Assembly: GCA_963721455.1 (NCBI GenBank)
Contig: CAVRJG010000050.1
Coordinates: forward strand, 1-49,887
Origin: an uncultured Methanosarcinaceae archaeon
GTDB taxonomy: Archaea > Halobacteriota > Methanosarcinia > Methanosarcinales > Methanosarcinaceae
Direction: 5' to 3'
Length of the DNA stretch: 49,887 nt
In this document: piece after piece, positions 5,916 to 27,690 of the stretch
Layout of the letters: every line of letters starts with the position of its first letter
Numbering within the stretch: position 1 is the stretch's first letter
The notes under the pieces: model-generated
The model's input: the letters and a program-made list of their open reading frames with translations, nothing else
Database searches by the model: none
What the model was told of the DNA's origin: nothing
Made by a program: the position numbers and the translations under genes

Positions 5916-6063
5916 TAGAAAACTATCCCAAGGTCATTTTTCTGTACAATATAAAATTGGTACATAATTATGACGCTTATGTATATAAATATACACCATT
6001 AATACTTGCTTATAAATTACGAACCAGATCTTTAAGGTGTTGATAATTGATGGTTGTGATATT

Positions 6064-6468
6064 ATGGTAAAATTAGATGAAGAGATGAAAACTGCATTTT
6101 CAAAGGTTAAGATTTTTCCTGTAGCTACAGCCTCAAAGGATGGAATTCCAAATGTAGTACCTATAGGGTTCTGCCAACTTATCGATGATGATACAATCTG
6201 GATTGTGGATAATTTCATGAGTAAATCCTTAGCAAACTTAAAAGAAAATCCTAATGTTGCAATTTACGTTTGGGGTCCTGATACAGGTGGCTGCTTTCAA
6301 ATAAAAGGTAAAGCAATTGTTATCGAATCGGGAGAAAAGTTTGAAAAAATGAAGTCAATTGTGCATACAGCAAAACCCGGACTTCCTGCAAAGACTCTTA
6401 TAGAAGTTCAGATTTCCAACGTCTTTCAATGTGCTCCTGGTCCAAATGCAGGACAGAAATTGCTTTGA
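6064..6468 (+). CDS. Pyridoxamine 5'-phosphate oxidase-like FMN-binding protein
   Basis: VATASKDGIPNVVP, DNFMSKSLANLKENP, FQIKG motifs. Confidence 0.88.
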   Translation: MVKLDEEMKTAFSKVKIFPVATASKDGIPNVVPIGFCQLIDDDTIWIVDNFMSKSLANLKENPNVAIYVWGPDTGGCFQIKGKAIVIESGEKFEKMKSIVHTAKPGLPAKTLIEVQISNVFQCAPGPNAGQKLL

Positions 6469-6490
6469 TCAAAGTAAAGGTGAACTCAAT

Positions 6491-6928
6491 ATGGACTCCT
6501 CTAGCATGGATAGAGAAAAGTTCTGGGATGCACAAACTTTTGCAATAATCACTGATCACACAAAGCCGGCTATGAAATGGACAGCCTCTGAACTCAAAAG
6601 CAGAGGTAAAAAAGTATATCTTGTAGACCTTTCCCAAAAACCTGATCGAGATTCACTTACAGACCTGGCTGAAATCCCCGTAGACGTAGATCATGTGGTT
6701 ATTGGAGTCACAAATACCGAACCAGGCGATTTAATTCCTATTCTTAAAGGAAAAGGCATAAAAAAAGTATGGCTTCACTGGAGAACTGATACTGAAAAAT
6801 CCGTGGAAGCCTGCCAAAAACAGGGATTTAAGTGTATAACTGGATACTGCCCAATGATGTATCTCGGTAACGGGTTAAGCATTCATGGTATGCACAGGGG
6901 AATTGTAAAGATTATGAGAAAGTACTAA
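6491..6928 (+). CDS. CoA-binding (YccU-like) Rossmann protein
   Basis: ELKSRGKKVYLV, SLTDLAEIPVDVD, GIKKVWL, C-terminal CPMMYL. Confidence 0.7.
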   Translation: MDSSSMDREKFWDAQTFAIITDHTKPAMKWTASELKSRGKKVYLVDLSQKPDRDSLTDLAEIPVDVDHVVIGVTNTEPGDLIPILKGKGIKKVWLHWRTDTEKSVEACQKQGFKCITGYCPMMYLGNGLSIHGMHRGIVKIMRKY

Positions 6929-6991
6929 AATTTAGCAAATGATTCAGGAATATCCATCATAGATAATTCAGTAAACCATGGGGGAAAAAAC

Positions 6992-9313
6992 ATAATCCAA
7001 ATTGCTCTTTATGGGAAAGGAGGCATAGGGAAGTCAACCATTGCTGCAAATCTCTCGGCTGCCCTTGCTGATTTGAAAAAAAGGGTGTTGCAGGTCGGCT
7101 GCGACCCAAAACACGATTCTACTCGTCTGCTCCTTGGAGGGGCCGATATCCCCACAGTGTTGGACTATATGCGCAAAAATCCTCAGGAAGCGCAGCATCT
7201 TGAAGCCGTGGTCTTTGAAGGCTATGGAGGCATTGCCTGCATAGAAGTCGGAGGTCCAAAACCCGGAATAGGATGTGCAGGTAGGGGAATACTGAGTAGC
7301 TTTGAGGTCTTAAAACGCCTAGGGCTTAGAGCTTCCTCTTTCGACGTCGTTCTCTATGATGTTCTTGGGGACGTAGTCTGTGGAGGGTTTGCACTTCCCC
7401 TCAGGAAAGAATATGCTGATGCGGTTTTTCTGGTGACTTCAGGGGAATATATGGCCCTATACGCAGCCAATAATATCCTCCGGGGAATCCAGAATTTCGA
7501 GGACGCAGCCCCCAGAGTTGCAGGCATCATCTTCAACAGACGCGGACTTTTCGCTGAAGAGAAAAGAGTTTATGCCTTTGCTCAGGCAGTAGGGCTGCCT
7601 GTAGTAGCCTCCCTTCCCAGGGATGAAGTATTTTCTAGGGCTGAAAAAGCCGGAAAAACCCTGGCTGAAGCCTTCCCTTCTTCTGTCCCTGCAAATGTTT
7701 TCAGGGAGTTAGCAAGATATGTTGAAACCCTGGAAAAGAATCGGAGCCTGCTCTACCTTGCCAACCCCCTAAGTGACCTTGAGCTTGAAGCCTTGGTGCT
7801 TGGAAGGCGTGAACGACCCGATATAAAGTCATTTGAAATAGGTTCTGTATCCGAAAAAAGGCAATATGCTGAATCTGTTCCTATCAGACAAGAAAACGGA
7901 TCTTCCACGAAAATCCACATGAAGATACCCGAAGCAAGTTCTGAAAATAGCTGTAAAGTGATTCCCGAAATACAACCTGTAGAAATTTTCACGGGAACTT
8001 CCAAAAAAGTGTCTACGCCATCTCCAATAGTATTTACTTCTAGACCGCTTCTTTATGGTTGCGCTTTTTCAGGGGCTGTAACTGCGACTTTTCAGGTTAA
8101 CGATGCTGCTACCGTTCTACACGGGCCAAGAAGCTGCACTCATTTTATAACCGATGCCCTTGTAGGCTCATTTTTAAGGGGAGGAAGAATAAATATACAG
8201 ACTAACGATGAAAGGCAGATCTCTAGCCTCTTACCCACAGATATAAACGAAGAGGAAGCAATTTTCGGGGGATTTGAAAAGCTTGAGAGGAAAATCGAAG
8301 AAGCCCTTTCAGCTGGCTGGCGAACTGTTTTTGTGGTGAACACCTGCCCCACAGGGATTATAGGCGACGACATAAAAAAGGCAACCTCAAGAGCGAAAGT
8401 CCGTTTTCCCGGAGCAAGAGTTATCCCCATTCCTGTAGAAGGAGTTATTACAGGAGACTTTTCGACTGGATTGCTTGAGGGCTACAAAAAAGTTGCTGAC
8501 CTGATTGATCCTTCTGTAAAGCCTGAAAAAGGTCTGGTCAATATTATTGGAGAAAGGAGTGTTTCCCTGAGGGACGAAGAACACTTCCATACTGTTGAGA
8601 AGCTCCTCAAAAGGTTGGGTTACAAGGTCAATTGCAGGTTTTTAAAAAGGACAGACACTCTTTCCCTTCGTTCTTTTAAAAAAGCGGAAATCAACTTGTT
8701 AGCCTATGATGACCCAGATACCCGAAACATGCAAGCATACCTTTCTGAGCGTTTCGGGGTTGAGTTTTTTGAGCTTCCATTTCCTGTGGGTTTCCAGGAA
8801 AGTTCTCTCTGGGTGAAAGCCCTAGTAGCACGTCTGCTCCCTGGAAAAGATTTCACACCCCTGCTGCAGGAACAGGAAAAGATGTATAGATTAGGGATTG
8901 AAAAATATGCTCCTTATCTCTCAGGTAAGCGCGTACTTTTGGTGAACTACACAGAGAACAGCGGATGGGTGCTGGACACCATCCAAGATCTAGGAATGGA
9001 AATTATCAAAGTTGGAATTCCAGTCTCTTTTTTTGAGAGGAAAAACCTCAACCTCCAGTCTCACGAAAATTTCCCAATAGAGAGGAACTATACTGATGAA
9101 AAAAGAGAAAGGGATATTAAGATTTTCAAGCCAGACTTTGTCCTTTCGAATTATGCACTTTCGGTCCCTGAAGATGGAGTGCATTACGATACCATCCCCT
9201 TTTCCCCACGGGTGGGGTTCCTTAGTGGGCTTGAGCTTGCAAAACGCTGGAGTACACTTCTACGGCTTCCAGCTGTGGAAGGATGGAAGTATGACGGTGG
9301 TGATGAATGTTGA
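6992..9313 (+). CDS. NifH-like Fe protein fused to a NifD/E-like nitrogenase component-1 domain
   Basis: In-frame IALYGKGGIGKST upstream of the called start (from ATA at 6992); GCDPKHDS, PGIGCAGRG, DVLGDVVCGGF; C-half GCAF, HGPRSC, TCPTGIIGDD. Confidence 0.9.
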   Translation: MIQIALYGKGGIGKSTIAANLSAALADLKKRVLQVGCDPKHDSTRLLLGGADIPTVLDYMRKNPQEAQHLEAVVFEGYGGIACIEVGGPKPGIGCAGRGILSSFEVLKRLGLRASSFDVVLYDVLGDVVCGGFALPLRKEYADAVFLVTSGEYMALYAANNILRGIQNFEDAAPRVAGIIFNRRGLFAEEKRVYAFAQAVGLPVVASLPRDEVFSRAEKAGKTLAEAFPSSVPANVFRELARYVETLEKNRSLLYLANPLSDLELEALVLGRRERPDIKSFEIGSVSEKRQYAESVPIRQENGSSTKIHMKIPEASSENSCKVIPEIQPVEIFTGTSKKVSTPSPIVFTSRPLLYGCAFSGAVTATFQVNDAATVLHGPRSCTHFITDALVGSFLRGGRINIQTNDERQISSLLPTDINEEEAIFGGFEKLERKIEEALSAGWRTVFVVNTCPTGIIGDDIKKATSRAKVRFPGARVIPIPVEGVITGDFSTGLLEGYKKVADLIDPSVKPEKGLVNIIGERSVSLRDEEHFHTVEKLLKRLGYKVNCRFLKRTDTLSLRSFKKAEINLLAYDDPDTRNMQAYLSERFGVEFFELPFPVGFQESSLWVKALVARLLPGKDFTPLLQEQEKMYRLGIEKYAPYLSGKRVLLVNYTENSGWVLDTIQDLGMEIIKVGIPVSFFERKNLNLQSHENFPIERNYTDEKRERDIKIFKPDFVLSNYALSVPEDGVHYDTIPFSPRVGFLSGLELAKRWSTLLRLPAVEGWKYDGGDEC

Positions 9314-10596
9314 TTTTTTCTCCTGATTCTTTTACAGGTTCTATCATGGCGGTAGAAGGTATCAGAGATGCGGCTGTGCTCCTGAACGGGCCTACAGGAT
9401 GCAAGTTATACCATGGTTTTCTCTCAGACAGACAATTTCCCAGAGAAAGTTCACATGACCCCCTGGCATTCCAGGATGAGTTCTATGTCGGGCAGCCTAG
9501 AGTTCCCTGCACCTGCTTGGATGGGGAAGACTACATTCAAGGTTCCCTTGAAAAATTTGAGAGAGCACTTACAACAATAGCAGCAAAGGAAAAAGGCTTA
9601 CTTGTGGTGATTAATTCCCCAGGAGCAAGCCTTTTGGGAGACGACCTGGAAGGTGTAATTAAAAAAGTAAGGATGCAGGACCGCTGTTTTGTGATAGAAA
9701 ATACAGGTTTTTCCCTTCCCGCAGCAACTGGCTTTGAAAATACTGCCCTTACCCTGCTCAAGCACCTGAATCTTCAGGCCTCCCATAATATAGGCTCTTC
9801 AAAAAAAGTGAATCTGATTGGGCTTTCCCTGCTCAATAAACACTGGGAAGGCTCAGTTACAGAAATGAAGCGGCTTCTGGCTTTTCTTAACCTGGAGGTA
9901 GGAACCGTTTTCCTTGCCGGAACTTCCCTCAACGAAATCCGGAAGTCAGGCGAAGCAGCCTGTAATATCGTTATTTTCCCCGAATACGGAAGAAGGATTG
10001 CAGAATGGTATAAAGAACATTTTGGGATCCCAGCTGTGTTTTCTCCTTTTGGGGCTCCCCTTGGGTTTGATGCGATTGAAAGCCTGCTGAGGGAAGTTGC
10101 AGCTGTTCTGGATATCAACCCTGCACCTGCCCTCGCAGAAGTCCATAAAGCCAGAAAGGTAAGTTATCAACAGATTTCGCGTTTCCATTCTTTCTCAGGG
10201 CTTCCCAAAGGAGCCAGTTTTTCAGTCAGGGCTGAAAGTTCCCTTGCCTATTCCCTTATACACTGGCTTTATTCTTACTTGGGAATGGCTCCTCTTGCAG
10301 TAAAACTACTTCCTGGAAGCGATCCTAAAGCAGCAGAAAATCTCAGAATATTTCTAGAAGAAAATGGTTTTTTTGAAGCATGGGATAAAGATCTTACCCT
10401 TGAATCGGTGGACATTGCCTTTGCAGATGGTCCTACTCTGCAACTTTTAAAAGCAAAGGAATGTTGCAAAACAGGCATTGAAATAACCATTCCTGAAGAG
10501 GGATACATCCACTTTCTCCCTAAGACATATCTGGGAGTTTCGGGTGCCCTCCTCCTTCTAGAAGAAATCATTAACGGATTACGCTCTAGCCAATAA
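9307..10596 (+). CDS. Nitrogenase component-1-like subunit (NifK/N-like)
   Basis: LLNGPTGC, ASLLGDDL, VNLIG, P.GFD; overlaps the upstream stop codon. Confidence 0.85.
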   Translation: MLIFSPDSFTGSIMAVEGIRDAAVLLNGPTGCKLYHGFLSDRQFPRESSHDPLAFQDEFYVGQPRVPCTCLDGEDYIQGSLEKFERALTTIAAKEKGLLVVINSPGASLLGDDLEGVIKKVRMQDRCFVIENTGFSLPAATGFENTALTLLKHLNLQASHNIGSSKKVNLIGLSLLNKHWEGSVTEMKRLLAFLNLEVGTVFLAGTSLNEIRKSGEAACNIVIFPEYGRRIAEWYKEHFGIPAVFSPFGAPLGFDAIESLLREVAAVLDINPAPALAEVHKARKVSYQQISRFHSFSGLPKGASFSVRAESSLAYSLIHWLYSYLGMAPLAVKLLPGSDPKAAENLRIFLEENGFFEAWDKDLTLESVDIAFADGPTLQLLKAKECCKTGIEITIPEEGYIHFLPKTYLGVSGALLLLEEIINGLRSSQ

Positions 10597-10620
10597 CCTT
10601 CTATAAGGGGTAGAGCTAGG

Positions 10621-10742
10621 GTTCATGTCCACAGACCTTCTGCAATAGCACTCAATGAAACTCCCAAGGAATTCCATATTTCCACTGGACGATGTCAGAA
10701 GATTTAAATCAAATTTACTGCAGAAGGTCTGTGGACATGAAC
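10621..10742. mobile_element. MITE, 122 bp, long TIR gttcatgtccacagaccttctgca (copy 1)
   Basis: 24-bp inverted repeats; near-identical copy at 31201-31322. Confidence 0.85.
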
Positions 10743-10754
10743 ATTAACTTCTTC

Positions 10755-11083
10755 GGTTCCGTTGCAAATAATTATAAAAGAGTTATTAAATCTAATTTTT
10801 CAGGATATTTTAATCCGAACGTTGTATGCTAAGACGTTCGGTTTTTTGTTCATTTTATTAATATCATTTTTGTGTAAAAATATAATTGTGATTTCATGTT
10901 TGCACGCGGCCTTCCTGTATGTGGTTTCTGTGGATGAAGATAAGGTTCTATGGTTTTCCATTGGCGTCATCGATTTCACGAAAATACATAAAAGTAAATT
11001 TATAATTTCGACGTAATATTACTTTTGGGATAGGAAGGTTTTCAACGATTTTGTAAAATGTTCTAATTTTTTGCAACGGAACC
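10755..11083. mobile_element. Non-autonomous IS6-ended MITE
   Basis: ggttccgttgcaaa ... tttgcaacggaacc ends; no transposase inside. Confidence 0.85.
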
Positions 11084-14065: not shown

Positions 14066-14141
14066 TTCCTTTTTGCGCCTCCATCCGCTCCGGGTCCGCG
14101 CAGGCCTGGCCGGATAACATGCTATAATCAATAAGTAAAGG
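14066..14141 (+). repeat. Intergenic ~76-bp repeated element, copy 2
   Basis: Aligns with 13256-13332; cut off by an IS6-type end at 14142. Confidence 0.75.
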
Positions 14142-14350
14142 GATTCCGTTGCAAAAAATATTTCTGCAATTTGACACTATAATTTTCACCGTTATGTATC
14201 ATTTTCTCCTGAATGAAAATAATTAACTTTCCGAATTGTGGTGGTTTTTACTGATTTTGTGAAAAAGCCAGATTTTTTGCAACGGAACCTTATCTTTGGT
14301 TTTCTTTTTATTCTGTTGTATCATTAGAAAGGATTTTTTGCAATGGAACC
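14142..14350. mobile_element. IS6-ended MITE (14142-14289) plus a second right end (to 14350)
   Basis: gattccgttgcaaaaaa ... ttttttgcaacggaacc; extra ttttttgcaatggaacc. Confidence 0.8.
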
Positions 14351-14403: not shown

Positions 14404-15153
14404 TTATTTCCAGGCCTTCAGTTTCAAGCTCTCCACAGGCAGGCATCCACACCGCCTTTCGCTTATATCTAAATCTTCAGATAAAATTTCAACTGAAAAT
14501 CCGGCTTTTTCCAAAAGTCTGAGATACTCTTCTTTTAATAACGCACCTGCAATACAGCCTGCCAGCATGTCTTTGTCGTTTTTCAGGTCTTCAGGAAGCT
14601 CGGCCAGAAGAACCATGTCTGAAATGTACATCCTTCCCTTTGGCTTCAGGACCCGAAAGGCTTCACCGAATACTTTTTCCTTATCCGGTGCCAGGTTAAT
14701 TACGCAGTTGCTTATAATGGCATCCACTGATCTATCTTCAACCGGAAGGGCTTCAATATCCCCAAAGCGGAACTCAACATTTGAATATTCGTATTTAAGG
14801 GCATTAGCCCGTGCTTTTTCAAGCATCTCAGGAGTCATGTCAACTCCGATTACCTTTCCAGAACTCCCCACTTTTTGAGCTGCAAGAAAACAGTCAAAAC
14901 CTGCGCCTGAGCCTAGATCAAGGACAACATTACCGAATTTCAGTTCCGCAAAAGCTGTAGGATTACCGCACCCCAGACCCATGTTTGCGTCCGGAACAGA
15001 CATAATTTGATCCCCGGTATAGCCAACAGATTTCGAAGCATCAACTACACTTGACTCTTCACAACATGTGCTGCTGCAACAACAGGAGCCTCCTGCCATT
15101 GCAATTTCACCATATCTCTTTTTAATGATTTCTTTTTTTTCACTGGAATCCAT
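14404..15153 (-). CDS. arsM: Arsenite S-adenosylmethionine methyltransferase
   Basis: [34 protein letters not shown]-terminal Cys cluster. Confidence 0.93.
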
Positions 15154-15168
15154 TCTTTCACCTGATCC

Positions 15169-15519
15169 TTACCTTTTTTCTTTACCTTCTTTTTTGCTTT
15201 CGGTTTCATCCTTGCAACAAACCCGGAAATTTTCCGGACCACTGCAGCAGGGCTTTAATTTCCCAATTCCAAGGACAAGAAGAATTTCCCTGGTCTCTTC
15301 ATCCTTTATGCTGTATATTACATTTCGTCCCCGCTTTTCATACTTTAAGACACCTGCCTCAACAAGCACTTTCAGGTGCTTTGAAACAGTTGTCTGGTCC
15401 TTTTCCGTAAGGGGGGTAAAATCACAGGCACAGTAACTGTGCTCCAGCAGGTAGGAGAGAACAGTAAGCCTGGTTTCGTCTCCGAGAGCTCTGAAAAATT
15501 TCGCTTTATTTTCGAGCAT
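15169..15519 (-). CDS. arsR: ArsR/SmtB family transcriptional repressor
   Basis: FRALGDETRL, CACD, Q.TVSKHLKVL; C-terminal CC pairs; upstream of arsM. Confidence 0.88.
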   Translation of the reverse strand: MLENKAKFFRALGDETRLTVLSYLLEHSYCACDFTPLTEKDQTTVSKHLKVLVEAGVLKYEKRGRNVIYSIKDEETREILLVLGIGKLKPCCSGPENFRVCCKDETESKKEGKEKR

Positions 15520-15521
15520 AT

Positions 15522-15553
15522 TTATATGCACATATGCGCCTATATGCATATAA
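15522..15553. promoter_or_regulatory. Putative ArsR operator
   Basis: Imperfect palindrome ttatatgcacata-tgcgcc-tatatgcatataa directly before the arsR start. Confidence 0.65.
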
Positions 15554-16071
15554 AGCTTATGAAAAAAAGAATGAAGGCAGTGTATCAAAAGTTCTGTAAA
15601 ATCTGAATTACTCAGCATTATTTTTTTCGCAAAAAACAGATTTATAGCCTTTACGATCGCAAGGTTTTACGACAAAACCTGATGGTTAGAGTTTACCCCA
15701 ATCTACTTGCACGTTGGGGTAAAGGCCTTCAAAAAGCTCTCAAAATCAGTCAAATAAACAAAAAATTGACCAAGAATCCAGGAACTCGAACAAATCAAAC
15801 ACAGAGGAGTTAATTTTAACCCTTCACTCTTAGCCCATCCCTGAAAGTGCACACAATCCAAGCTGCCTATCCTTTTTCGGTCTTCTCTCTTAATCATAAT
15901 AAGTAATTTGGGGATCATGGTCTTTTGCAATCTATGAAGGTCTGGAAGATATAAGAAAAGGTAGAAGGCAACTTATCAATAGCTCATAGTATTTTGGATC
16001 CCCCGAATTTAAATGAACATGAATATCAGATTTTGTAGAAAAACTCTCTAAATTTTTAGACTGCCTATAAA

Positions 16072-16368
16072 TCAGGAAAGGGAAATTTCCTCTTTTTTCC
16101 TTGCTACCTGCTCGATTTCTTTTCCTCTTAACTCCCATACCTGATCCAAGCACCATCTCAGGGCTTCGGAATCGAGATCCGTTCCTAGAGCAATCTTGAT
16201 TTTCTCAAGATTTTCATTCTGCTTTTGCGAGATTTTGAGCCCTTTCTGGATTGTATACCTCTCCTGACTCTGCTTACTTGATTCTTTTGAGAAGAACTTT
16301 CCTATTGTTTTTTCTGGTGTTTCGGATTTTTCGGATTTTTTCAAGCTTGTTTCTCCCATTCCTGCCAT
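16072..16368 (-). CDS. Small ParA partner, predicted ribbon-helix-helix centromere-binding protein
   Basis: Starts 2 nt after the parA stop; low-complexity N-tail then QKGLKISQKQNENLEKIKIALGTDLDSEALRWCLD (beta-alpha-alpha pattern). Confidence 0.65.
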   Translation of the reverse strand: MAGMGETSLKKSEKSETPEKTIGKFFSKESSKQSQERYTIQKGLKISQKQNENLEKIKIALGTDLDSEALRWCLDQVWELRGKEIEQVARKKEEISLS

Positions 16369-16370
16369 TT

Positions 16371-17141
16371 TCACGCCTCCCACCATGACAACAGTTCTTC
16401 AGTCAATTGTTTATAGGCCTGTGCCCCTTTGCTGTCAGGATCATAGGAAAATATTGCCTGATTGTATGAAGGAGCCTCATCTAGCCGGATATTTTGAGGA
16501 ATTGTAGTGCTCAGAACCCGTTCTCCGAACACCTCCGTAACCTTCTTTTTGATGTCTCTATTAATTAAGAGATGGTCATCGTACATTGTAAGCAGAACCG
16601 ATCCTATTTTCAGATGTGGATTTACATTTTCCCTGACACTCTCAATAACATCAAGGAACTGCTGGATGCCTTCCAGAGAATAAAACCCCTTTACTGGAAT
16701 AAGCAATTCATCCGCAGCAGAGAGAGCATTTATTACTATGGATCCAAGTAAGGGGGGCGTGTCGATAATTATATAGTCGTATTGTTTTGCGAAGTCGCAT
16801 TTAAGAGCTTTCTGGAGAAGGCGTTCTCTTCCTATTTTTGAAGTGATTTCCAGCTCAACGGTTGCCAGATCCATAGTAGCAGGAACTATATCCAATCCCA
16901 GAACAACCGAAGGATATGTTGCATCCTGCAATGTTCCCTGAAAATACAAAGATCTGGCACTGTTAAGGATTACAGTACTCTTTGGTAACAATGCAATTGT
17001 GGCATTGGCCTGCGGATCATTATCAATCAGTAGGACTCTTTTGCCTGCCATAGCTAGCCCTGCTGACAAATTTACAGCAGTTGTGGTTTTGCCTACCCCC
17101 CCTTTCCAGAGGCTAACGCATACGATTTTTGGTTTTGACAC
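16371..17141 (-). CDS. parA: ParA/Soj Walker-type partition ATPase
   Basis: KGGVGKTT, LIDNDPQAN, IIIDTPP, L.EAPS motifs; no N-terminal HTH. Confidence 0.92.
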   Translation of the reverse strand: MSKPKIVCVSLWKGGVGKTTTAVNLSAGLAMAGKRVLLIDNDPQANATIALLPKSTVILNSARSLYFQGTLQDATYPSVVLGLDIVPATMDLATVELEITSKIGRERLLQKALKCDFAKQYDYIIIDTPPLLGSIVINALSAADELLIPVKGFYSLEGIQQFLDVIESVRENVNPHLKIGSVLLTMYDDHLLINRDIKKKVTEVFGERVLSTTIPQNIRLDEAPSYNQAIFSYDPDSKGAQAYKQLTEELLSWWEA

Positions 17142-17160
17142 TCTAACGCTTCCTATTCAG

Positions 17161-17360
17161 TTTTCAGGCTATTCAGTTTTCAGGATATCCCATTTTCAAG
17201 ATACTTAGTTTTTAAGATACTTAGTTTTTAAGATATTTAGTTTTTAAGATACTTGGTTTTTAAGATATTTAGTTTTTAAAATATCTAACTTTTAAGATAT
17301 CTAGTTTAGGATATCTAATTTTTAAGATTTTTGATTTTCAGGATATCTAGTTTTCAAGAT
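17161..17360. repeat. ~12-13 tandem 16-bp repeats (consensus TTTTTAAGATATCTAG), putative centromere/operator
   Basis: Direct reading: ttttcaagatacttag, tttttaagatacttag, tttttaagatatttag ...; begins ~20 bp upstream of parA. Confidence 0.85.
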
Positions 17361-17681
17361 GAAAGGATCTCCTAACATAGAAGGAGAATCCTTATCTTAT
17401 GGCATTGTACATGGAAAATCAGCGTAGAAGAACTTCCTAAATTATCAATAATATCTTGAAAATAAGGGAAACCAGGAAGAAAAAGAAGCATACGAGCAAA
17501 TGAACACTGGATTTTGACTACTCCGATATAACGAAAGCATTGGCGTGAACATACCCCGTTGATTGTAGCAGGTTGTTATTTCCTCACTTAACCACAGACG
17601 CATGGATTGCTGTTTGGATTCAGTGGTTCAAACCCTCATGGTGCTGATTTTTATTGGAAAAAATCCCAAATCTTGACCATT

Positions 17682-17740
17682 TTCAATGTAATAAACTGTA
17701 ATAAACTCACAGGATTCAATGTAATAGACTGTAATAAACT
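17682..17740. repeat. 33-bp tandem duplication built from tgtaataaac units
   Basis: ttcaatgtaataaactgtaataaact repeated with one mismatch. Confidence 0.7.
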
Positions 17741-17908
17741 GTGTCAAAAACTGTGCCTTTTTTGGTCGAAAACAGATGAGAAAATATATATTATATACTA
17801 GAGATTCAGATCATATTGCAGCTCAACAATAAAAAATTTGTAGTATCCAGGTCACATCTAAGAACTTTTAACAGTTATATATATGCCGAGAACACTCTAA
17901 CTTTTGCA

Positions 17909-18394
17909 ATGGATCTTCGGAAATCAGCCCTCTATTTTGTAGCCATTCTTGTGCTGCTTAATGGAATGACTGGCGGCACTGTCCTTGATAGCACACTCAG
18001 TACGCTGACCTCCGAAGATAAGGCTGCATTTCGCTCCTAGATCTACTGCATTGTGGGGCTTCTAATCTATACTCCTGTTCGAGAAGTCTGGGATTTCCAG
18101 CTCCCATGTCCATCATTCAGCGACCTAACGCTCTCGGCTGCCATTACAAGTGTGCTAATTTTCATGCTGCATATCACAGGACATACTCAGGGCTGGAAAA
18201 GGGTAATCGAAATATTCGTTGTGGTCTGGATACTTTTCAAAATCTTCGGGCTTTTCCTGATTTATTATTCCGGTGACACCTGCATTATTCGCCTGACCGA
18301 TAGTGCAGGTATATACAACGGAATCTACCAGCTTTTAGCCCTGCTAGGCTTCGGTGTAATTTACAGGATTGCAAACATGGCGAGAAATTCGTAA
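17909..18394 (+). pseudogene. Multi-pass membrane protein interrupted by an in-frame TAG (18038-18040)
   Basis: ORFs 17816-18040 and 18053-18394 share a frame; hydrophobic helices on both sides. Confidence 0.6.
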
Positions 18395-18754
18395 TCTGGC
18401 TGTCCTGTCACTTAGATTCAACGTTTTTCAGAGTATTTTCACCGGAGACCCACCTTCCTTGAATGCCACCAGATGCTACCTGAGAGCTTGTCTGTTACAT
18501 GAACTCCTGTGTGTAGTAGGTAGTGTTTACTCGCGTACTGAACGTCCTTAGAACGGCTCTAATGAAGCAGTCGTGGTTTGATGAGCTGACTACATAGTTA
18601 GCCTTTGTAACTGTAAGTTCGAGTTTGAATATATTTAGAGGCATGACTGGAAACGGTAGCAGAAGCCGTTGTTTTTATTTTGAGCTGATTTTTGAGGCAT
18701 TGAAACGCAAAGATAACACTGGAAATGATGAAGCGCAGGCACCTTTTTTCTGTC

Positions 18755-19216
18755 AACCTAACAAAAACATAACAAAAGGTAACCAATTGCCAAAAAATAC
18801 GAAAAACCTGCATCATTCGACGTGATTTTGAAAAAAGACCTAACACATAATCTAACAAAAACCTAACAAATCTAACAAAAACCTAACACTTTTTTAGACA
18901 GATACCTAACACTAAAAAAAAAGAGCATTCGACACTTTTTGGAGAACAACCTAACAAAAACATAACAAAAACTACTGGTTTTGAGTGTTAGGTAGCCAGC
19001 GAGGGTAGACCTAATTATTTAAATTAATTTAAAGAGCGAAAAGATACCGTCACGTAGTTGAGATACTAACTAACTATATATACTATATAGCTCAAATAAA
19101 AAACACTTTCATATTATTTATAACTTTCTACACGGTTGAAAAACATGTGCCGAAATCATTCTACATTCGGTCTACCCTCGCAAAACGCCTAACAAAAACC
19201 TAACAATATCCTAACA
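18755..19216. repeat. Origin-like zone: clustered (C)CTAACA motifs, 26-bp inverted repeat, AT-rich core
   Basis: About a dozen cctaaca/ctaaca/cataaca; tgttagg-N6-gcgagggtagacc (18986-19011) mirrored at 19169-19194. Confidence 0.7.
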
Positions 19217-19367
19217 CCCATTTATGACATACGTTGTGTTACATTTAGATGAAAAATTCATATCCATATAAAATGCAAAAATAAGCGATAAAAAAAGTAA
19301 GTCAATAGATGCCGTTTTTCAGTCTCTCACTCAAGGAACAGTATTCTTGATGTCAGTAAGTATCACG

Positions 19368-19940
19368 AAACCTACCAGAACCTAACATGTCAATTGATGC
19401 TGATTCCGGCAAACATAACATCATATCTCCAGTCTCTGATAAATCCTGCCAGAACCTACCAAAACCTACCAAAACCTAATACGTCAATTGATGCTGATTC
19501 CGGCAAACATAACATCATATCTCCAGTCTCTGATAGATCCTGCCAGAACCTACCAAAACCTACCAAAACCTAACACGTCAATTGATGCTGATTCCGGCAA
19601 ACATAACATCATATCTCCAGTCTCTGATAGATCCTGCCAGAACCTACCAAAACCTACCAAAACCTAACACGTCAATTGATGCTGATTCCGGCAAACATAA
19701 CATCATATCTCCAGTCTCTGATAGATCCTGCCAGAACCTACCAAAACCTACCAAAACCTAACACGTCAATTGATGCTGATTCCGGCAAACATAACATCAT
19801 ATCTCCAGTCTCTGATAGATCCTGCCAGAACCTACCAAAACCTAACACGTCAATTGATGCTGATTCCGGCAAATATAACATCATATCTCCAGTCTCTGAT
19901 AGATCCTGCCAGAACCTACCAAAACCTAACACGTCAATTG
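19368..19940. repeat. Tandem array of six near-perfect units (4 x 94 bp + 2 x 84 bp)
   Basis: gtcaattga recurs at 19389, 19483, 19577, 19671, 19765, 19849, 19933. Confidence 0.95.
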
Positions 19941-20040
19941 AGAAGGAGTAGCACATACGGGCAATTCATGAAACAGCTTCTTGTCGCACTACAGAACTTT
20001 CGGTACACTGCCCAATTCGGAAATTTGAGTACTCTCATTA

Positions 20041-20173
20041 AGAGCCTATCCGAAAAGTGGTTACAAGCTACAACTTTTACAATATGCAATATGCAAAACC
20101 GGAACCGATACTCTGATATTATAGACCTATTGTGACTTTTCAATATGCATTACTGACTTTTCGGATAGGCTCT
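20041..20173. mobile_element. MITE with TIR agagcctatccgaaaagt
   Basis: 18-bp perfect IR; solo ends of the same type at 27691 and ~39323. Confidence 0.85.
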
Positions 20174-20230
20174 AAGCAGAAAAATAACATTTAAAGGCCA
20201 GAATTATAGCCTCAAATTGCAGAAAAATTA

Positions 20231-20246
20231 TTTTTGCAACGGAACC
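20231..20246. mobile_element. Solo IS6-type right inverted repeat
   Basis: tttttgcaacggaacc identical to the IS6 end at 5900-5915. Confidence 0.75.
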
Positions 20247-20315
20247 GTTTCTAAAGCCTTCAAACCAAAATATTTAATTGGGTTTAATATACAGTTGGAG
20301 ATATAAATATTATAT

Positions 20316-21647
20316 ATGTTAGGGGCCCCTCTAATGAAAAAAACAAAAATGTCGGCAGACGCTGGCAGGACCGGGACTTTGAGTTTTGTCCATGCTGCTG
20401 ATCTCCACCTTGACAGTCCATTCACAGGAATTTCCGGAATTGACCCGGAGCTGGGGGAAAGGCTTGCGAAAGCTACCTTTCAGGCTTATGAGGCAATTAT
20501 CGAACTTTGTATGGATGAAGAAGTTGACTTTCTGCTTATTGCGGGGGATGTGTATGACAGTACCGACAAGAGCCTTTATGCGCAGGTCAGGTTTATAGAG
20601 GGGCTTCGGAAGCTTGAAACCGCCGGGGTTCAGGTTTTTATCTGCCACGGGAACCACGATCCTCTTGACGGTTGGTCGGCAAGCCTGAAGTGGCCCGGAA
20701 ACGTACATATAATGAGGGGGGAAGGGGCAGAAATTGTGGAATTAGAAAAAGAAGGAGTAATTGCCGCCCTTGTAGTGGGGATGAGTTACCCAACACGACA
20801 CATAATGAAAAATCTTGTAAGAAACTTTCCAAATAAAGGTGATAACTGGCCATTTACTATAGGACTGTTGCATTGCAGCGTGGGAAGCAACCCGGAGCAT
20901 GACCCTTACGCACCCTGTACCCTGCAGGACCTCAGGGAGCTCAACTATGATTACTGGGCTCTGGGCCACATCCATACTCCTTCTATAGTTTGCAAAGAAG
21001 CTCCCGTTGTGATATATTCCGGCAACCCGCAGGGCAGGAATCCAGGTGAAATAGGGGCAAGAGGGTGCTTTATAGTGGATGTTTCCTTTGGAGGAGCCAT
21101 TTCTACCAGGTTCATCGAGACCGACTCTGTCCGCTGGCATACCAGGGAAATTTCCATACAAGGCCTGGAGAAAGAAGGGGAGCTTATAGAAAGTCTTCAA
21201 AGCCAGCTTGATGACATAAGGGAAAATTCTGGGGGAAGGTCTGTGATTTGCAGGTTTGTCCTCAACGGGAGGGGGTCGCTGCATCGCACCCTCAGGGAAA
21301 AGGGATTTCTTGAAGATCTACTCCATTTGCTCAGGGAGGACGAAATCCGGGGCCGGCAGTTCGTCTGGGTAGAGCGCATTGAAGATGAAACACTCTTTCC
21401 CGTGGAAAGGGAGCTTCTTCTTAAAAGGGAGGATTTTGTGGGAGATCTGGTAAAAATCGTGGAGGGCTTGAAAACAGATGAAAAGGCCCTAGATGAGTTC
21501 CGTGAAGCCTTTTCTCCTCTCTTTAAATACGGGAAGGGGAGAAAACACGTTCGCAAAATTGATGACGAAGAGATGAAATTTCTGCTTCAGCGCGCCGAAA
21601 ATATCCTTCTTGATGCCCTGCTCACGGAGGAAGACCATGAAAATTAA
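20316..21647 (+). CDS. Mre11/SbcD-like metallophosphoesterase nuclease (YhaO type)
   Basis: ADLHL, AGDVYD, GNHD, ALGHIH, YSGNPQGR motifs. Confidence 0.92.
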   Translation: MLGAPLMKKTKMSADAGRTGTLSFVHAADLHLDSPFTGISGIDPELGERLAKATFQAYEAIIELCMDEEVDFLLIAGDVYDSTDKSLYAQVRFIEGLRKLETAGVQVFICHGNHDPLDGWSASLKWPGNVHIMRGEGAEIVELEKEGVIAALVVGMSYPTRHIMKNLVRNFPNKGDNWPFTIGLLHCSVGSNPEHDPYAPCTLQDLRELNYDYWALGHIHTPSIVCKEAPVVIYSGNPQGRNPGEIGARGCFIVDVSFGGAISTRFIETDSVRWHTREISIQGLEKEGELIESLQSQLDDIRENSGGRSVICRFVLNGRGSLHRTLREKGFLEDLLHLLREDEIRGRQFVWVERIEDETLFPVERELLLKREDFVGDLVKIVEGLKTDEKALDEFREAFSPLFKYGKGRKHVRKIDDEEMKFLLQRAENILLDALLTEEDHEN

Positions 21648-24600
21648 TGCCATCCATATTGACGGTTTCGGCAAGTTTTCCAGGTTGTCGATGGAAGACC
21701 TGCCCTCCGGTCTGGTAATTTTCACAGGGGCAAATGAGGCTGGAAAATCAACATTATTCACTTTTATCCGGAGGATGTTTTTTGGCATCCCTAACACAAG
21801 GCTCTGCAATCTCTATCCCCCACTTGAAGGAGGGAAGCATGGGGGAAGGCTTGCAGTCATTGATTCCTCCGGAGACCGTTGGGTCATAGAGAGAAACATA
21901 GGCCGAAAAGAGGATGCAAAAGTAGTGCTTCCAGACGGGAATACAGGGGGCAGGGCTGAACTTCTTAAACTCTTGGGCCACGCAGACAGAAACGTCTTTG
22001 AAAATATCTATGCTTTTGGCCTTGAAGAATTGCAGAGTTTTGAGACCCTGAACGACCAGAGCATCAACAGTAAACTCTACAGTGCAGGTACAGGGGTTGG
22101 AGTTTCCATTTCAGGACTGATGAATTCAATCAGCAGCATTGAAAACAACCTGTATAAACCCAGAGGTAGCAAACCCCTTATAAACGAGTTGTTTAGGGAA
22201 ATAGGGAAAACTGAAGAAAAAACTGCCGAACTTGAAGGAGCCCAGAAAAAATATGATTCTCTTCATTTCGAACTGGAACGGCGGACCCTAGATATTGACC
22301 AGTTAAAAGAAAAGTCTCAGAATATACGGAAAAAATTAAACCACATTCAAAACCTGCTTTTCGTCTGGGAAGACTGGAAGACCATCCTTGAGTCAAAAAT
22401 CGCCCTTGAAGGCTTATCCGGGCTTGAGAGTTTCCCCGAAAAAGGGGAAGAAAAGCTTACAAGGCTCCTGGAAAGAATTGAAGAAATAAAAGAGACAATT
22501 TCGAGGCTGCAGCAGGAACTGGAAAAAAATGCCATTAAAGAAAGAAGCATTTCCCCGGACGAAAGCCTTCTGAGGCAAAAAGATGCGATGTTGGAACTGG
22601 AAAGCGGGATTGAAAAGTACAGGTCCGAAGTAAAAATGCTCCCGTCCCTGGAAATAAACCTCAAGCAGGAAGAAGAGGGGCTTTCTGAGCTACTCCTGGA
22701 ACTGGGCCCGAAATGGGATGAGGGAGCTCTGAACCGCTTTGATCGCTCAATCCCAGCAAAAGAAATCGTCATCCAGATGCGAAGGTCAGTAGAGGAAATT
22801 GAGGATCAAATAAAAGAGACCAGAAATGAACTCCAGCAGATTTTAAACAGCATCGAGCGGGTCCTCCAAGAAAATGATGTTTTTGAAGAAAGCCTCCTTG
22901 TATACAGAGTCCAGGTCATCGAACTTGGAAACGGGATCGAGAAATACCAGGCTGATAAGGACTTTCTTCTTTCCGGGACTCAGGAACTTCAGGGCAGAAA
23001 AGCCGAACTAAGGGAAACTCTGTCAGGGCTTGGAGAGGGGTGGAACGAAAGTGCCCTTGCCCGTTTCGAATGTTCGATCCCTTCAAAGGAAAACGTACTC
23101 AGAAAACGAAGGGAAATGGAGGAGGCAGAAAAAACAATTGAGAGATACCGCGACAGGCTCGAACTTGTCCTTGGGGAAATCAAAGAAGTCAGCGAGGAGA
23201 TCGAAGCTCTGAAAGAGAAACTCGAGCTATACTCAGCACTTCCCAATCCTGAAGAGCTCAAGCAGGGGCTTGAAGCTGTAAGCTACCTCAGGGTGAACTA
23301 TCCTCTCCTAAGGGAAAAGGAAAGCGAACTCAAAAATCTGGAAAAGGAAGAGATGCTTTTTGCAGCTTTGAGGCCCCGGGAAGCTGAACATCAGGACGGG
23401 CTTCCCCTCTGGCCTGCAGGAATGCTCCTGCTTGCAGGCGGCATGAGCCTGGCCTACGAGTACATGAATGGAACCCTGCTTTCCGGACTTGGCATATTTT
23501 TCCTCCTTTTCGCTACTTCTGCTGCATACTTCCTGAAAGCCAGGAAAAAGCCCTCAAGCCCTCCTTCCGGGGAGGAGCACCTGAAAGAAACCGAATCCCG
23601 GAAACAGAAAGCTCAGGACTCAAAGGAAAAGCTATACGGAGATATTGCCACCCTGAAAGAATACATAAAAACCCGGGCAAAAAAGTGCGGCTTTGAAGAC
23701 ATCCCCGACCCTTCGGTGCGGGAACAGAAAGCCGATGAGCTGCAAAGGGTCTTGATTGAGTTGAAAACTGCCGGGGAACTGCGCCAGGGAAAGAATAAGC
23801 TCCACAAGAAGCTGGAGAAGTTAAATGCAGGTTACCTGGAACTTGAGGGTAAGCTGAAAGCCGGAGAGGAAAGGCAAGAAGAGGTTCGCCAGGAATGGGA
23901 AGAGTGGCTTTTTTCTTCAGGGCTCGACCCGGAACTTTCTCCCGAACATGTGCTTGAGCTCCTTTCCGTAATCAAAGCCTGCCTGGAAAAGCAAAAAATT
24001 GTTAAAGAACTGGAAAAACAGGTAAAGCTCAAGGAAGCTGCTGTTAAAAAGTACGAAGAGGAAGCCCTTAGCATTCTGGAAGCCTGCGAAAGGCCTGTTT
24101 CGGGAATCATACTCGAAAGTGAAATAGCAAAGCTCCGGGAGGACGTAAGTTTTGCATTTAACCAGGCCGAAAGAATGAGGACACTTGAAGTTGAATCCGA
24201 AAGCCTTGATCACGAAAAAGAAAAGCTCGAAGCCCGGCTCCTTGAGGAGAGAAAGGAAAGGGACTCCCTCTCCGAAAAGTGGACTTGCTGGCTTGGGGCT
24301 TACGGGCTTGACCCCTCGCTTTCCGTGGAAAGCGTGCTTGAAATCTTTTCGGTAATCCGGACGTGCTTTGACAGGCAGCGGGCTATCCGGAACCTTGAAG
24401 GACAGATAGTGTCCAGCAAAACTTCGATAGAAGCCTATGAAGCAAAGGTGAGCGGGGTTCTGCAGGAATGCGGACGTCCGTTTTCTGGGCTTTCTTTCGA
24501 CACTCGGGTAGAGAAACTCCGTTCGAACCTTGAACAGGCATCCGAGGAAGCAAGAAGCCTGGAGCAGCTGAAAACAAGATCAAAAGAACTCGAGATCGAA

Positions 24601-25493
24601 CTTCAGGCAGCTCGGGATAAGTATGAAGACGCTGCAAAAGAGCTTGCAGTCCTTCTTGAATCCGGTTCTGCAAGCACGGAAGAAGAGTTCTGTGAAAATG
24701 CACGGCTCTGGACTCAGCGAACCGAGCTCGAAAAGCAGGGAAAGGGAGGCTGAACAGCAGATTCGTAGGGTTTCCGGGGATGGGGAAAAGTATGAGCATT
24801 TTCATCGAAGAACTGCAAGCCTCCGATCCATCAGGCCTGGAAGAAGAAAACCGCAGGCTAGAGGAATGCCTGAAAACCCTTGAACAGGAGACCACCGAGA
24901 ATATGGACAGGCGTGGAGCGATAGGAAACCAGATCGAACAGCTCGAACACGGAAGTGAAGGTTCCCTGACAAGGGTAATGCAGGAAAGCCTGCTGGAAGG
25001 CCTTCACGAAAAGTCAAGGGAATGGGCTTCTTGGTTTGGCCCGGGAAAGTCCTTGCTAAAGCAATCGAAATCTATGAGAAGGAAAGGCAGCCTGCAGTTA
25101 TCGTTGAAGCCCAGGCCTTTTTTTCAAAGATTACCGGAGGCAGGTACACGAGGATTTATTCCCCGCTCGACTCTCCCGAAATCTATGTTGAAGATCGGGA
25201 AGGACGTCAAAAGAGCATCCGGAACTCAGCCGGGGAACAGCCGAACAGCTTTATCTCTCCCTGCGTTTCGGTTTTATCAGGGAATTCGGCAGGCATTCGG
25301 AATCTCTTCCGTCGTTTTTGATGACGTGTTGGTGAACTTTGACCCTGAACGCTGCAAAAGCACCTGTGAAGCCATAAAGGACCTTGTTTCAGGCAACCAG
25401 GTCTTTTACTTCACCTGCCATCCCGAAACCGTGCAGATGCTTGTAGAAAGGTTCCCCGAAGCCCGGGCTGTAGACCTCGATAAAGTAGCATAA
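21637..25493 (+). pseudogene. SMC/SbcC-like AAA ATPase (YhaN type), C-terminus split by several frameshifts
   Basis: IDGFGKF, GANEAGKST, long coiled coil; ELSRGTAEQLYL and FDDVLVNFD recoverable only by changing frame between 24740 and 25310. Confidence 0.85.
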
Positions 25494-25907
25494 TAAGAGA
25501 GTTGAAGCGTAAAAGGGTTGGATCGGAAGAATTGAAACTAAACCGTTTTACATAAATTGTTGTGAAGCACTTTCACTCAGGAAACGGACTTCATCCCGGT
25601 TCCTGGTGTATCAATTCTATATCCTCAATGAACCCAGGACTATACGCGGATGAACAATGATGAATTCAATTAAGCGTGTTAATCCGTGTCCATTTGTAGT
25701 TGTTCATGGGAAACGCATTGGCAAGTGTTGACTTCAAAGTCGAGTTGTACTTGCCATAATTTGTACCTCGAGTGCACTAAGTTTTTATATTTTATAATTT
25801 ATATCAGAAATCCGGATTCTGTTGTGAACAAATCATCAAAATTTACAATTGTCGACTTCCTGTGTATTTCAGAAAAAATCTTCCTACCGATTCAAGTTTC
25901 CAAACAT

Positions 25908-27690
25908 TCACAGATCAATTCCCTCGCAGTATAATCTAAACCCACACTCCTTACAGTTGTCCGGATACTCTGTCCTCTCAAACCCATGCTCATAATCATA
26001 AGCAATATTTCGTGCAGTCTCTACTATAGAGTCGATTGCTCCTCTATCAAGGGGACTTACCCTGCCTTCAGTACCTCTGTATTCCCCGTCTTCCTGCAAC
26101 TCAAAACTCCTGGGTTTTTCCATGGCCAGCATGTCAAGGGTAAGCCGCTTCACCCGGTATTCCGGATGCATGTGTTCAAAACCTTTTGCGTAAAGTAGGA
26201 GCTGCCTTGAACGGTCTTCGGGGCTCACATCGTACTTACCGGTTTTATAATCGATAATTTCAACCTCTTTCCTGGAAGAGTCAAGTAAATCAACTCTGTC
26301 GATTTTTCCTTTGAAAATGAAATCGTCTATAGGAACGCTAAACCATTTTTCAACCATAAGATTGTTTGAAATCCGGTCTTTATTGCGGAGCCAGAACACT
26401 TCAAAAAGAGGGAAAGTTAATTCTAAATCCACATACATCCATTCCGGCTTTTTATGCAATGCTTCTATTATCTTATAGAGAGCCTGTTTTTCTGAAACTT
26501 TTTCTTTAACTGCGATTTCAAGCACCTCATGCACGAAACTTCCCTTAGCCAGAACACCTGTGGAATCTTCGTTCTTCCGGCTTGGCATGCGCAGGATTTC
26601 CTGCAGTTCATATTGTCTTGGGCAGTTTTCGTACACTTTCAAAGCAGAAAAGCTGAAACCAAAAGCTTCTGGATTGAACCTTAAGCCGTTGCTTCTGGTC
26701 TGCATTTTTGAGAAGATCTCTCCCGCCTTCTCTGCCGGGTCTATCAGGCTCCACTTTTGCTGCATTTCTTCAAGATAGTTCCTACATCCACCATCTCTTA
26801 GAGCCCTATATACCATCAGGTAGTGTACAGCTTCTTCAAGGTCCTTATCAAGGGATTCAATAAGCAGCTGAATACACCTGTTTTTCTCTCGCTCAAGTTC
26901 ATTGTCCCTTACAAGGCCTGCAGTTTTGATCTCAAGGTCTCTCCGGTAAGACAAATCAAGCACATCAAAAGGGGTCTCTATTTCCCTGTTACCGCTTGCT
27001 TCCCTTTCCACAGCAATTTCCAGATCCCGCCAGTGGTCATACCCAACTTCCATGAGAAATTCGGAAGGCTCCCGCTCCTTACCACCATATTCTAGAGAAA
27101 GAGTTAGTATAAGGTCTTCTTTTGCCCTTGTAAATGCCACGTAACAGAGCCGGCGCTCTTCTTGTAGTTTTATCTTTTTTTTACGCTCTTTAATTGCATT
27201 TTCAAGCTCTGCTTTACTTAATTTCAATGAGAAGAGATCCTGATACTGGCTCATCATTTCCAGTGGAATCAGAGGTTCTTGCCCACCCCTAAGCAGAGGG
27301 AACTTATCCTTTGCCATGCTGGTCACAAAAACGACTTTGAATTCAAGCCCTTTTACTGCATGGATACTCATCAGGCTTACAGCATCGTCCTCCTTGATCT
27401 TTGCAGATGCAGGGTTGCCTCCCATTTCGTCCAGAATCTCTAGATAATCAATGAAACCAAAAAGCTCTCTGTTGTAGAATTGTTCATAATTCTTTGCCAT
27501 TTCATGCAGGTTTCTCAGGTTAAGGAAAGCTTCTCTGGCTTTCAACGTATCCAGCCTATTTAAGTGTCTCACAAGCCCACTGCGGTCATAAATTTCAAGC
27601 AAAAGATCCGAGACATCCAGCAGGTTTTTCTCTCCAAGAACCCTGACTGTTTCTTTCACTTTTTCAACAGTACTCCGTCCTTTTTCACTT
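25908..27690 (-). pseudogene. C-terminal part of a UvrD/AddA-like helicase fused to a PD-(D/E)XK nuclease
   Basis: SIHAVKGLEF, EERRLCYVAFTRAK, GKIDRVD, IIDYKTG, CP...CKEC.FRLYC; Walker A half missing; open frame ends at a MITE end at 27691. Confidence 0.85.

Follow-up and report, generated by a model that had tools for sequence, protein, structure and literature searches.

A 94/84-bp tandem array beside an origin-like zone in a Methanosarcina genome and its possible role as an auxiliary iteron block

What is the role of a long tandem array that repeats, in non-coding DNA, the word of an origin-like zone next to it? The question is raised by contig C50 of a Methanosarcina genome (3.94 Mb in 73 contigs), the whole of which (49,887 bp) is the window analysed here. 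The array consists of 94- and 84-bp units carrying helically phased heptamers of the CCTAACA type; the same word recurs in the zone, which has the outline of a replication origin, and further upstream is a partition (par) cassette of plasmid affinity. We tentatively read the array as an auxiliary, protein-binding iteron block of a plasmid-derived origin-like region set in mosaic chromosomal DNA. Binding of a protein by the array, and any part it may have in replication, are predicted from sequence.

Anatomy of the array and the word shared with the zone

At either end of the array is a fragment of its unit. The array opens with a 21-nt partial unit end (19368–19388), continues through four 94-bp and then two 84-bp units, and closes with a 9-nt partial start (19933–19941). 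Anchoring on GTCAATTGA places the unit starts at 19389, 19483, 19577, 19671, 19765, 19849 and 19933, and Tandem Repeats Finder (TRF) makes two calls, one at 19368–19928 (period 94, 6.1 copies, 94% matches, score 1017) and one at 19733–19941 (period 84, 2.5 copies, 96% matches). Three substitutions are present across the six units (544 bp), two of them in unit 1 (19442 G>A and 19480 C>T) and one in unit 6 (19874 C>T), the outermost. Units 2–4 are identical and unit 5 differs from them solely by having one CCTACCAAAA subrepeat less, the 84-bp units corresponding to 94-bp units minus exactly one CCTACCAAAA. Substitutions confined to edge units, with identical inner units, are as expected of homogenisation by unequal exchange.

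At the end of each 94-bp unit are four heptamers at exact 10-bp steps, CCTGCCA, CCTACCA, CCTACCA and CCTAACA, the last of which reads CCTAATA in unit 1; the 84-bp units have three heptamers each. Located 31 bp ahead of the heptamer block in five of the six units is CATAACA, and the palindrome TCAATTGA is present in every unit. The array as a whole thus holds 24 phased heptamers of the CCTRMCA type and five CATAACA, all on the plus strand. Its unit lengths of 94 and 84 bp amount to 8.95 and 8.0 turns (arithmetic at 10.5 bp per turn), which is close to whole helical turns, and all blocks therefore lie on the same face of the helix. The preliminary description had claimed a near-perfect array whose unit length changes by exactly one 10-bp subrepeat, with three or four phased heptamers per unit ending in CCTAACA and a palindrome; apart from the CCTAATA ending of unit 1, this account is accurate in each particular.

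The same description had called the array non-coding, and this too is borne out. Stops occur in every one of the six frames (6–20 per frame), for which reason the array is taken as non-coding, and its longest frame (91 aa), searched against 5.8 billion predicted proteins, gave 48 candidates, none with E ≤ 0.001. No Rfam family was found at 15000–22000, where a search with E up to 1 returned two chance hits of 21.7 and 20.5 bits, compared with a gathering score of 110. The array is single-copy in its own genome and is composed of 35.2% A, 30.0% C, 11.8% G and 23.0% T. With contiguous units that are alike throughout and have no unique spacers, it differs from an array of clustered regularly interspaced short palindromic repeats (CRISPR). 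A diverged ‘unit 0’ at 19300–19388 was considered and rejected, as the resemblance is confined to both ends and the middle gives a z score of 0.4.

Ending 150 bp before the array is the origin-like zone (18757–19216), which contains 14 sites (10 direct on the left, one inverted and three direct on the right), mostly at 11-bp steps. Its spacer is 73% AT, compared with 60% for the window, and the least stable 100 bp rank in the window's top 1.3%. The 13-nt perfect core of the bounding inverted repeat, GCGAGGGTAGACC, is found genome-wide solely in the two arms. The spacer is flanked by facing copies of CCTAACA and by the inverted repeat, as in origins of the origin recognition box (ORB) type, and the direct repeats are in helical phase and adjoin the AT-rich stretch, as in iteron-type origins. 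A simple wedge model predicts the left iteron cluster to be strongly curved (top 1% of the window) and the array not to be extreme; being crude, this model is given little weight.

The word itself is concentrated here to a degree seen nowhere else in the genome. Within 1.25 kb (18700–19950) are 16 of the 178 genome copies of CCTAACA and 14 of the 41 copies of ACCTAACA, and this region is the sole site in the genome with at least four CCTAACA in 500 bp. Of the six CTAACA pairs with a spacing of 10–12 bp in the genome, the zone holds five, and 42 of the 43 motif instances in zone and array are on the plus strand. Aligned with the zone's two iteron clusters, the iteron block of the unit scores z 6.2 and 6.0 (0 of 300 shuffles in each case), whereas two control stretches in the same test score z 0.7 and 0.4. 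That array and zone share a motif, as was first noticed from the sequence alone, is thus supported both by alignment (z ~6) and by the clustering of the word. What sets this locus apart is how these features come together: a single word recurs in four clusters, an inverted repeat bounds AT-rich DNA, and the word is also the basis of a long-period array.

The partition cassette and the strain-specific segment

An intact par cassette of the ParA type, with a Walker-type ParA, a small downstream partner and an upstream repeat array (Table 1), lies ~2.2 kb upstream of the array and at a distance of 1.6 kb from the zone. The cassette is 87% identical to that of the Methanosarcina barkeri Wiesmoor plasmid (NZ_CP009525.1, 32,371 bp; G063:C2), which also codes for Orc1/Cdc6. 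As a 1.3-kb module it occurs at 86–87% identity on this plasmid and on contig G020:C42, both times with 16-bp arrays (two on the plasmid, of 16.6 and 9.8 copies, and one of 12.2 copies on G020:C42). The 13-copy array here is likely to be the centromere of a mobile par module. Neither the 94-bp array nor the CCTAACA zone accompanies the module on the M. barkeri plasmid or on G020:C42, and the 16-bp repeat and the 94-bp unit are unrelated sequences. Between the putative par centromere and the zone (17682–17741) a direct repeat of 26 nt occurs twice, 33 bp apart, and each copy holds two TGTAATAAAC decamers; this is possibly another protein-binding site.

The segment at 17580–19941 is specific to this strain: matches to it in the family's 176 other genomes never exceed 81 nt, and because of this and its dispersed-repeat borders it is regarded as accessory DNA. 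Three other contigs of the genome (C72, C34 and C35) share pieces with the island and were annotated; none of them holds a heptamer cluster or an identifiable initiator. Contig C72 carries a truncated copy of the par module (98%), with a truncated parA only. Contig C34 (1995–4204 and 9062–9640) is plasmid-like: alongside another ParA and an integrase it encodes a 441-aa protein that belongs to no family, and its DUF1699 gene is shared with the M. barkeri plasmid.

Small shares of the locus are present in ten DNA sequencing runs, and no RNA run was among those listed. The metagenome check comprised Logan contigs of four runs, 142–493 nt long, which give neither unit count nor gene context. From four metagenome studies these match, 90–99% alike, the par genes, 17.45–18.14 kb, the zone at 18937–19262 and the stretch 19274–19370, which means that this assembly has a close relative in the environment. 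One metagenome contig enters the first unit, with a variant junction of two consensus CCTAACA 11 bp apart. An apparent joint of 19370 to 19837 in one metagenome run was rejected as a deletion, the variant junction fitting a later unit better.

Table 1 Array, zone, partition cassette and right boundary, in positions of the window
Feature	Position	Strand	Basis or remark
104-aa protein, no family, downstream of parA	16072..16386	-	Holds place of centromere-binding partner; counterpart in M. barkeri plasmid cassette
parA, 256 aa	16371..17141	-	AAA_31 E 3e-50; PHROG 164 ParA-like E 5.9e-62
16-bp x13 array directly upstream of parA	17154..17360		Centromere-like (predicted)
Left iteron cluster	18757..18967	+	10 direct CCTAACA/CATAACA/TCTAACA, mostly 11 bp apart
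Left arm, 30-nt inverted repeat (77% complementary)	18986..19015		One inverted copy of CCTAACA, plus 13-nt core GCGAGGGTAGACC
AT-rich spacer, candidate unwinding element, 149 bp	19016..19164		Composition and stability
Right arm, 30-nt inverted repeat	19165..19194		
Right iteron cluster	19188..19216	+	Three CCTAACA at 11-bp steps
Tandem array	19368..19941	+	TRF, unit anchoring
Right boundary	19942..20246		~70-nt dispersed repeat, MITE-like (miniature inverted-repeat transposable element) element, ~68-nt dispersed repeat
Dispersed repeat, ~70 nt	19942-20012		Abuts array
MITE-like element, 137 bp	20039-20175		18-bp perfect terminal inverted repeats

Possible roles of the array

In the reading that we tentatively favour, one sequence-specific DNA-binding protein would read CCTAACA and its close variants. 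Its sites in the zone lie on both sides of the AT-rich spacer, which cooperative binding could bend and open, and the 11-bp steps, the single inverted copy and the 30-nt inverted repeat would then be the layout of an iteron or ORB-type origin. The array would contribute its 24 further heptamers in seven blocks, beginning 150 bp past the zone; with heptamers 10 bp apart in a block and blocks 94 or 84 bp apart, these would be presented on one helix face, and a 10-bp change in unit length would keep the phase. Placed there, the array may act on the zone via looping, pairing or titration of the binding protein, and the sign could go either way, as an enhancer (like crr of phage P4) or as a brake or incompatibility locus (like incA of P1 and incC of F). 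Its growth could have proceeded by unequal recombination or slippage at two levels, of 10 bp and of 94 bp.

Several findings weigh against this reading, beginning with the lack of relatives. No homologous element was recovered from the 177 family genomes, from plasmid (PLSDB) and phage records, from IMG/VR or from metagenome contigs, and the search for the unit elsewhere that the preliminary description had proposed ended without a second occurrence in these collections or in the genome itself. In the family genomes the array had no match and the zone none above 81 nt; 61 relatives gave one 39-nt match only (E 5.9e-4), PLSDB a single 55-nt match within the 16-bp par repeats, and phage records no DNA match. 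Exact patterns fared likewise: the 18-mer iteron pair had at least 80 single chance matches in GTDB species genomes, with no second match among those listed, and four single matches in IMG/VR, where a 22-mer of the unit and an 18-mer of the inverted-repeat arm had none, and an 18-mer of the unit had 46 single matches in JGI metagenome contigs. Compared by blastn, 130 pattern-scan loci (viral, genome and metagenome) showed no likeness beyond 23–34 nt.

Short phased repeats are, moreover, an ordinary feature of these genomes. Arrays of period 10–12 with at least three copies number 76 in this genome, and a 13-kb stretch of another (G015) holds four 11-bp arrays. CTAACA-containing 11-bp arrays were found at unrelated loci in 5 of 58 other genomes of the genus, compared with 4 for a reversed-pattern control; in G014, four copies of CCTAACAGAAG lie inside a longer CTAACA-type repeat run upstream of a transporter gene. 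Because such arrays are common in the genus, short phased repeats by themselves lend little support to an origin. The complete chromosome of G066 (G066:C1:1209030-1209290) has ~25 copies of an 11-bp unit, ACTAACAAATA, adjoining AT-rich DNA; this array has the hexamer core and period of the zone in an unrelated context.

Nor was an initiator found. The open reading frames (ORFs) at 10.8–20.3 kb include no Rep-like family (Pfam, PHROGs and NCBIfam), three Cdc6 proteins compared with the window by tblastn left no remnant at E below 0.4, and Rep3_N and Prim-Pol have no match anywhere in the genome. A genome search for Rep_1 is excluded from this negative, its control having had no match anywhere. 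Matches to Cdc6_C, across the whole genome, are confined to contigs C52 and C33, and the arrays linked to these cdc6 genes (13 bp ×18, 18 bp ×10.8 and 12–13 bp ×21) use words that differ from those of the CCTAACA zone. The arrays, which flank both genes (C33:156913-157151; C52:70785-71000 and 75349-75611), are candidate ORB-type repeats of chromosomal origins; the origin regions of this genome are repeat-rich, yet with other repeats than the zone. Pyrrolysine is in use in the genus Methanosarcina, and if TAG is read accordingly two small ORFs join into a 192-aa membrane-like frame at 17816–18394, a 113-aa part of which has no homologue in 58 other genomes of the genus; TAG readthrough of the region yields no Rep-like gene.

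The setting of the locus also counts against the favoured reading. The contig is flanked on both sides by blocks conserved in complete Methanosarcina chromosomes, and the locus is therefore not established as a replicon; from its sequence it looks like a mosaic of mobile segments inside seemingly chromosomal DNA. A bolder version of the favoured reading, which we consider improbable, is that 18.75–19.94 kb forms a self-contained replicator of an undescribed Methanosarcina type, lacking its own initiator gene; firing would depend on a protein, encoded by the host or unrecognised, with CCTAACA as its site. The array would then be a length-variable dosage device that sets copy number or incompatibility, since same-face sites are added or removed with every step of 94 or 10 bp. 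The preliminary description had suggested that the array and the par cassette together may define an undescribed replicon type; the cassette is indeed beside the array, but the replicon type is not supported, no initiator gene having been found in the window and chromosomally conserved blocks lying on either side.

The most serious rival to an auxiliary iteron block is an inert higher-order repeat, in which a 10-bp microsatellite stretch was duplicated by slippage or unequal recombination in decaying, rep-less mobile DNA and the shared motif reflects local common descent; we rate this somewhat below the favoured reading. The frequency of short tandem arrays in genome and genus agrees with it, as do the absence of an initiator gene and of conservation elsewhere, and the flanking partial units, identical inner units and 10-bp indel speak for recent mechanical expansion. 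Long direct repeats of the plasmid pC2A can reportedly be deleted with replication kept (PMC9569500). Opposed to neutrality is the rarity of a six-copy, non-coding 94-bp array in this genome: 37 arrays have a period of at least 40 and at least three copies, nearly all with periods divisible by 3 and a handful without, and the 94-bp array is the top-scoring multi-copy exception. Both unit lengths, furthermore, keep helical phase, and the one-stranded motif and its tie to an origin-like layout would have to be coincidence. Were the array inert, it would document higher-order repeats arising from 10-bp microsatellites in repeat-rich intergenic DNA of Methanosarcina. Assembly is a very improbable source of the array. 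The six units are the count as assembled, in a genome of 73 contigs, and the exact periodicity of ~350 bp (units 2–5) is beyond counting by short reads or short metagenome contigs, so that an assembler might have inflated one or two units; but three unit variants and two lengths in a fixed order would be hard to produce artefactually, assemblers usually collapse repeats rather than expand them, and the metagenome contig that enters the first unit does so from the same flank in another study.

Other rivals accept that the array is functional and assign it elsewhere. It may be a regulator-binding array, orphan or active, in which the 12-bp near-palindrome CRTCAATTGAYG would serve a dimeric regulator together with the direct repeats; derived from a plasmid or virus and multiplied, it would act in transcription control or as a decoy, not in replication. 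One near-palindrome per unit beside direct repeats, a degenerate copy (GTCAATAGATGC) 89 bp upstream of the first unit and the CTAACA arrays before the transporter gene of G014 are in keeping with this; yet no regulator gene is tied to the array, no clear archaeal TATA box or B recognition element is seen in the unit (by eye, without a promoter model), and the DNA upstream of the downstream SbcD/SMC operon differs in all four relatives examined, so that the array is not a conserved control region of that operon. We judge this reading unlikely, about on a par with the self-contained replicator. Transcription of the array as a repeat-containing non-coding RNA seems less probable again. PMC9879509 suggests intergenic tandem repeats (TRs) of Borg elements as regulatory RNAs, the minus-strand unit folds better than shuffled sequence (z −2.95 and −2.65; 2 and 1 of 200 shuffles) and an A/T-rich, TATA-like stretch lies near 19266–19275; plus-strand folding, however, is at chance (z −0.45 and +0.36, and +0.58 for the whole array), and Rfam yields only the two sub-threshold hits. 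Slightly less probable still is a second segregation or tethering site, such as a second centromere or a counterpart of the family of repeats (FR) of Epstein–Barr virus (EBV), working with the par cassette. The array is near parA and offers many same-face sites in one orientation, but the cassette already possesses a 16-bp array, in two other genomes it is accompanied by this array and not by the 94-bp one, and the two repeats have no sequence likeness.

Comparison with known systems and the flanks of the locus

Methanosarcina genetics is built on one rolling-circle replicon, pC2A. To our knowledge, little work has been done in methanogens on replication control of the theta or iteron type, and a literature search found no description of iteron origins in Methanosarcina plasmids. 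An array in which unit number could tune the count of initiator sites would make a simple, testable model. Should an auxiliary iteron block be confirmed, a second cis-acting origin, combined with a par cassette and a centromere, could serve as the backbone of stable, low-copy Methanosarcina vectors.

Phage P4 encodes its own initiator (alpha), and its crr, with two repeats, lies kilobases from ori1. Common to P4 and this locus are two separate cis blocks built on one short word, the second consisting of long direct repeats with several copies each; here, by contrast, no initiator gene is found, array and zone are separated by 150 bp and the units number six. The likeness to P4 ori1/crr proposed in the preliminary description is thus a fair account of layout, as an analogy of structure. 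Control iterons (incA of P1, incC of F and those of Vibrio cholerae chromosome II) are 17–22-bp units adjoining a Rep_3-type rep gene. They too are extra initiator-type sites outside a minimal origin, direct and phased, and sites of this kind could titrate or handcuff; the locus differs from them in having a 7-bp core in a 10–11-bp period inside a 94-bp unit, in a genome with no Rep3_N. The oriP of EBV, a eukaryotic virus, combines the FR with a dyad symmetry element, both bound by EBNA1. A symmetric core element beside a tandem array (of ~20–30-bp or longer units) with sites of the same protein recalls oriP, where EBNA1 is known; the comparison here is by layout, and no counterpart protein is identified.

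Three of the systems compared are archaeal. Orc1/Cdc6 origins with ORB repeats occur on the M. barkeri Wiesmoor plasmid and on Methanoperedens plasmids (PMC9674854). Similar here are the repeats flanking an AT-rich stretch and a par cassette related to that of the Cdc6-encoding plasmid; different are the words, which are unlike the host's cdc6-linked repeats, and the window, in which no orc1/cdc6 gene or remnant was found. Borg TRs, as described in PMC9879509, are perfect and contain ~48% A; they abound throughout the giant linear elements of Methanoperedens, and host chromosomes have hardly any. The array resembles these in being head-to-tail and near-perfect, with flanking partial repeats and an intergenic unit length not divisible by 3. 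Unlike them it has substitutions, two unit lengths and 35% A with 30% C, and it is among the few non-coding long-period arrays of a Methanosarcina genome, on a contig with chromosomally conserved blocks. From the Borg comparison drawn in the preliminary description the flanking partial repeats survive, whereas perfection, A content and context do not, and the analogy is weak. PMC9569500 describes pC2A as replicating by rolling circle with an HUH RepA, its long direct repeats being dispensable. The PLSDB search gave no match to pC2A; compared by description, it shares with this locus long direct repeats in the non-coding DNA of a Methanosarcina plasmid replicon, and differs in its rolling-circle mode with HUH RepA and in the dispensability of its repeats.

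Beyond the right boundary, homology to other Methanosarcina genomes resumes at 20247 with an SbcD-like/SMC-like operon that is 82–89% identical to many of them. Copies of the MITE-like element in the boundary occur at 82–96% identity on contigs C72, C64, C17, C12 and C53, with weaker ones elsewhere, and its summed contig depth reaches ~92 in one soil metagenome. Short dispersed repeats (~70–150 nt) fall into two families, at 14137–14289 and 20181–20250, and also occur at 19942–20012; both families have dozens of copies genome-wide, are present in other Methanosarcina genomes as well and mark the edges of variable segments.

The conserved block at 20316–27659 encodes an SbcD-like phosphoesterase, a 1047-aa SMC-like ATPase with a PADLOC match to LmuB of Lamassu (E 2e-16), a 237-aa protein of no family and, on the opposite strand, a UvrD_C and PD-(D/E)XK protein without the N-terminal helicase domain. 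Upstream of its counterpart in G066 is a CRISPR array, and the block may, judging by its genes, be a defence or repair module. On the left, 4.9 kb (5916–10840) match contigs from three other species-level genomes, with an identity of 100% in G006 and G081 and of 97% in G070; identity of 100% across species argues for very recent horizontal spread. The genes of this stretch are PNPOx-like, CoA-binding, NifH-like and two that resemble nitrogenase component 1. A single 746-aa frame at 7073–9313 joins a NifH-like part (residues 1–242) to one like nitrogenase component 1 (330–730), which is either a fusion or an effect of ORF calling.

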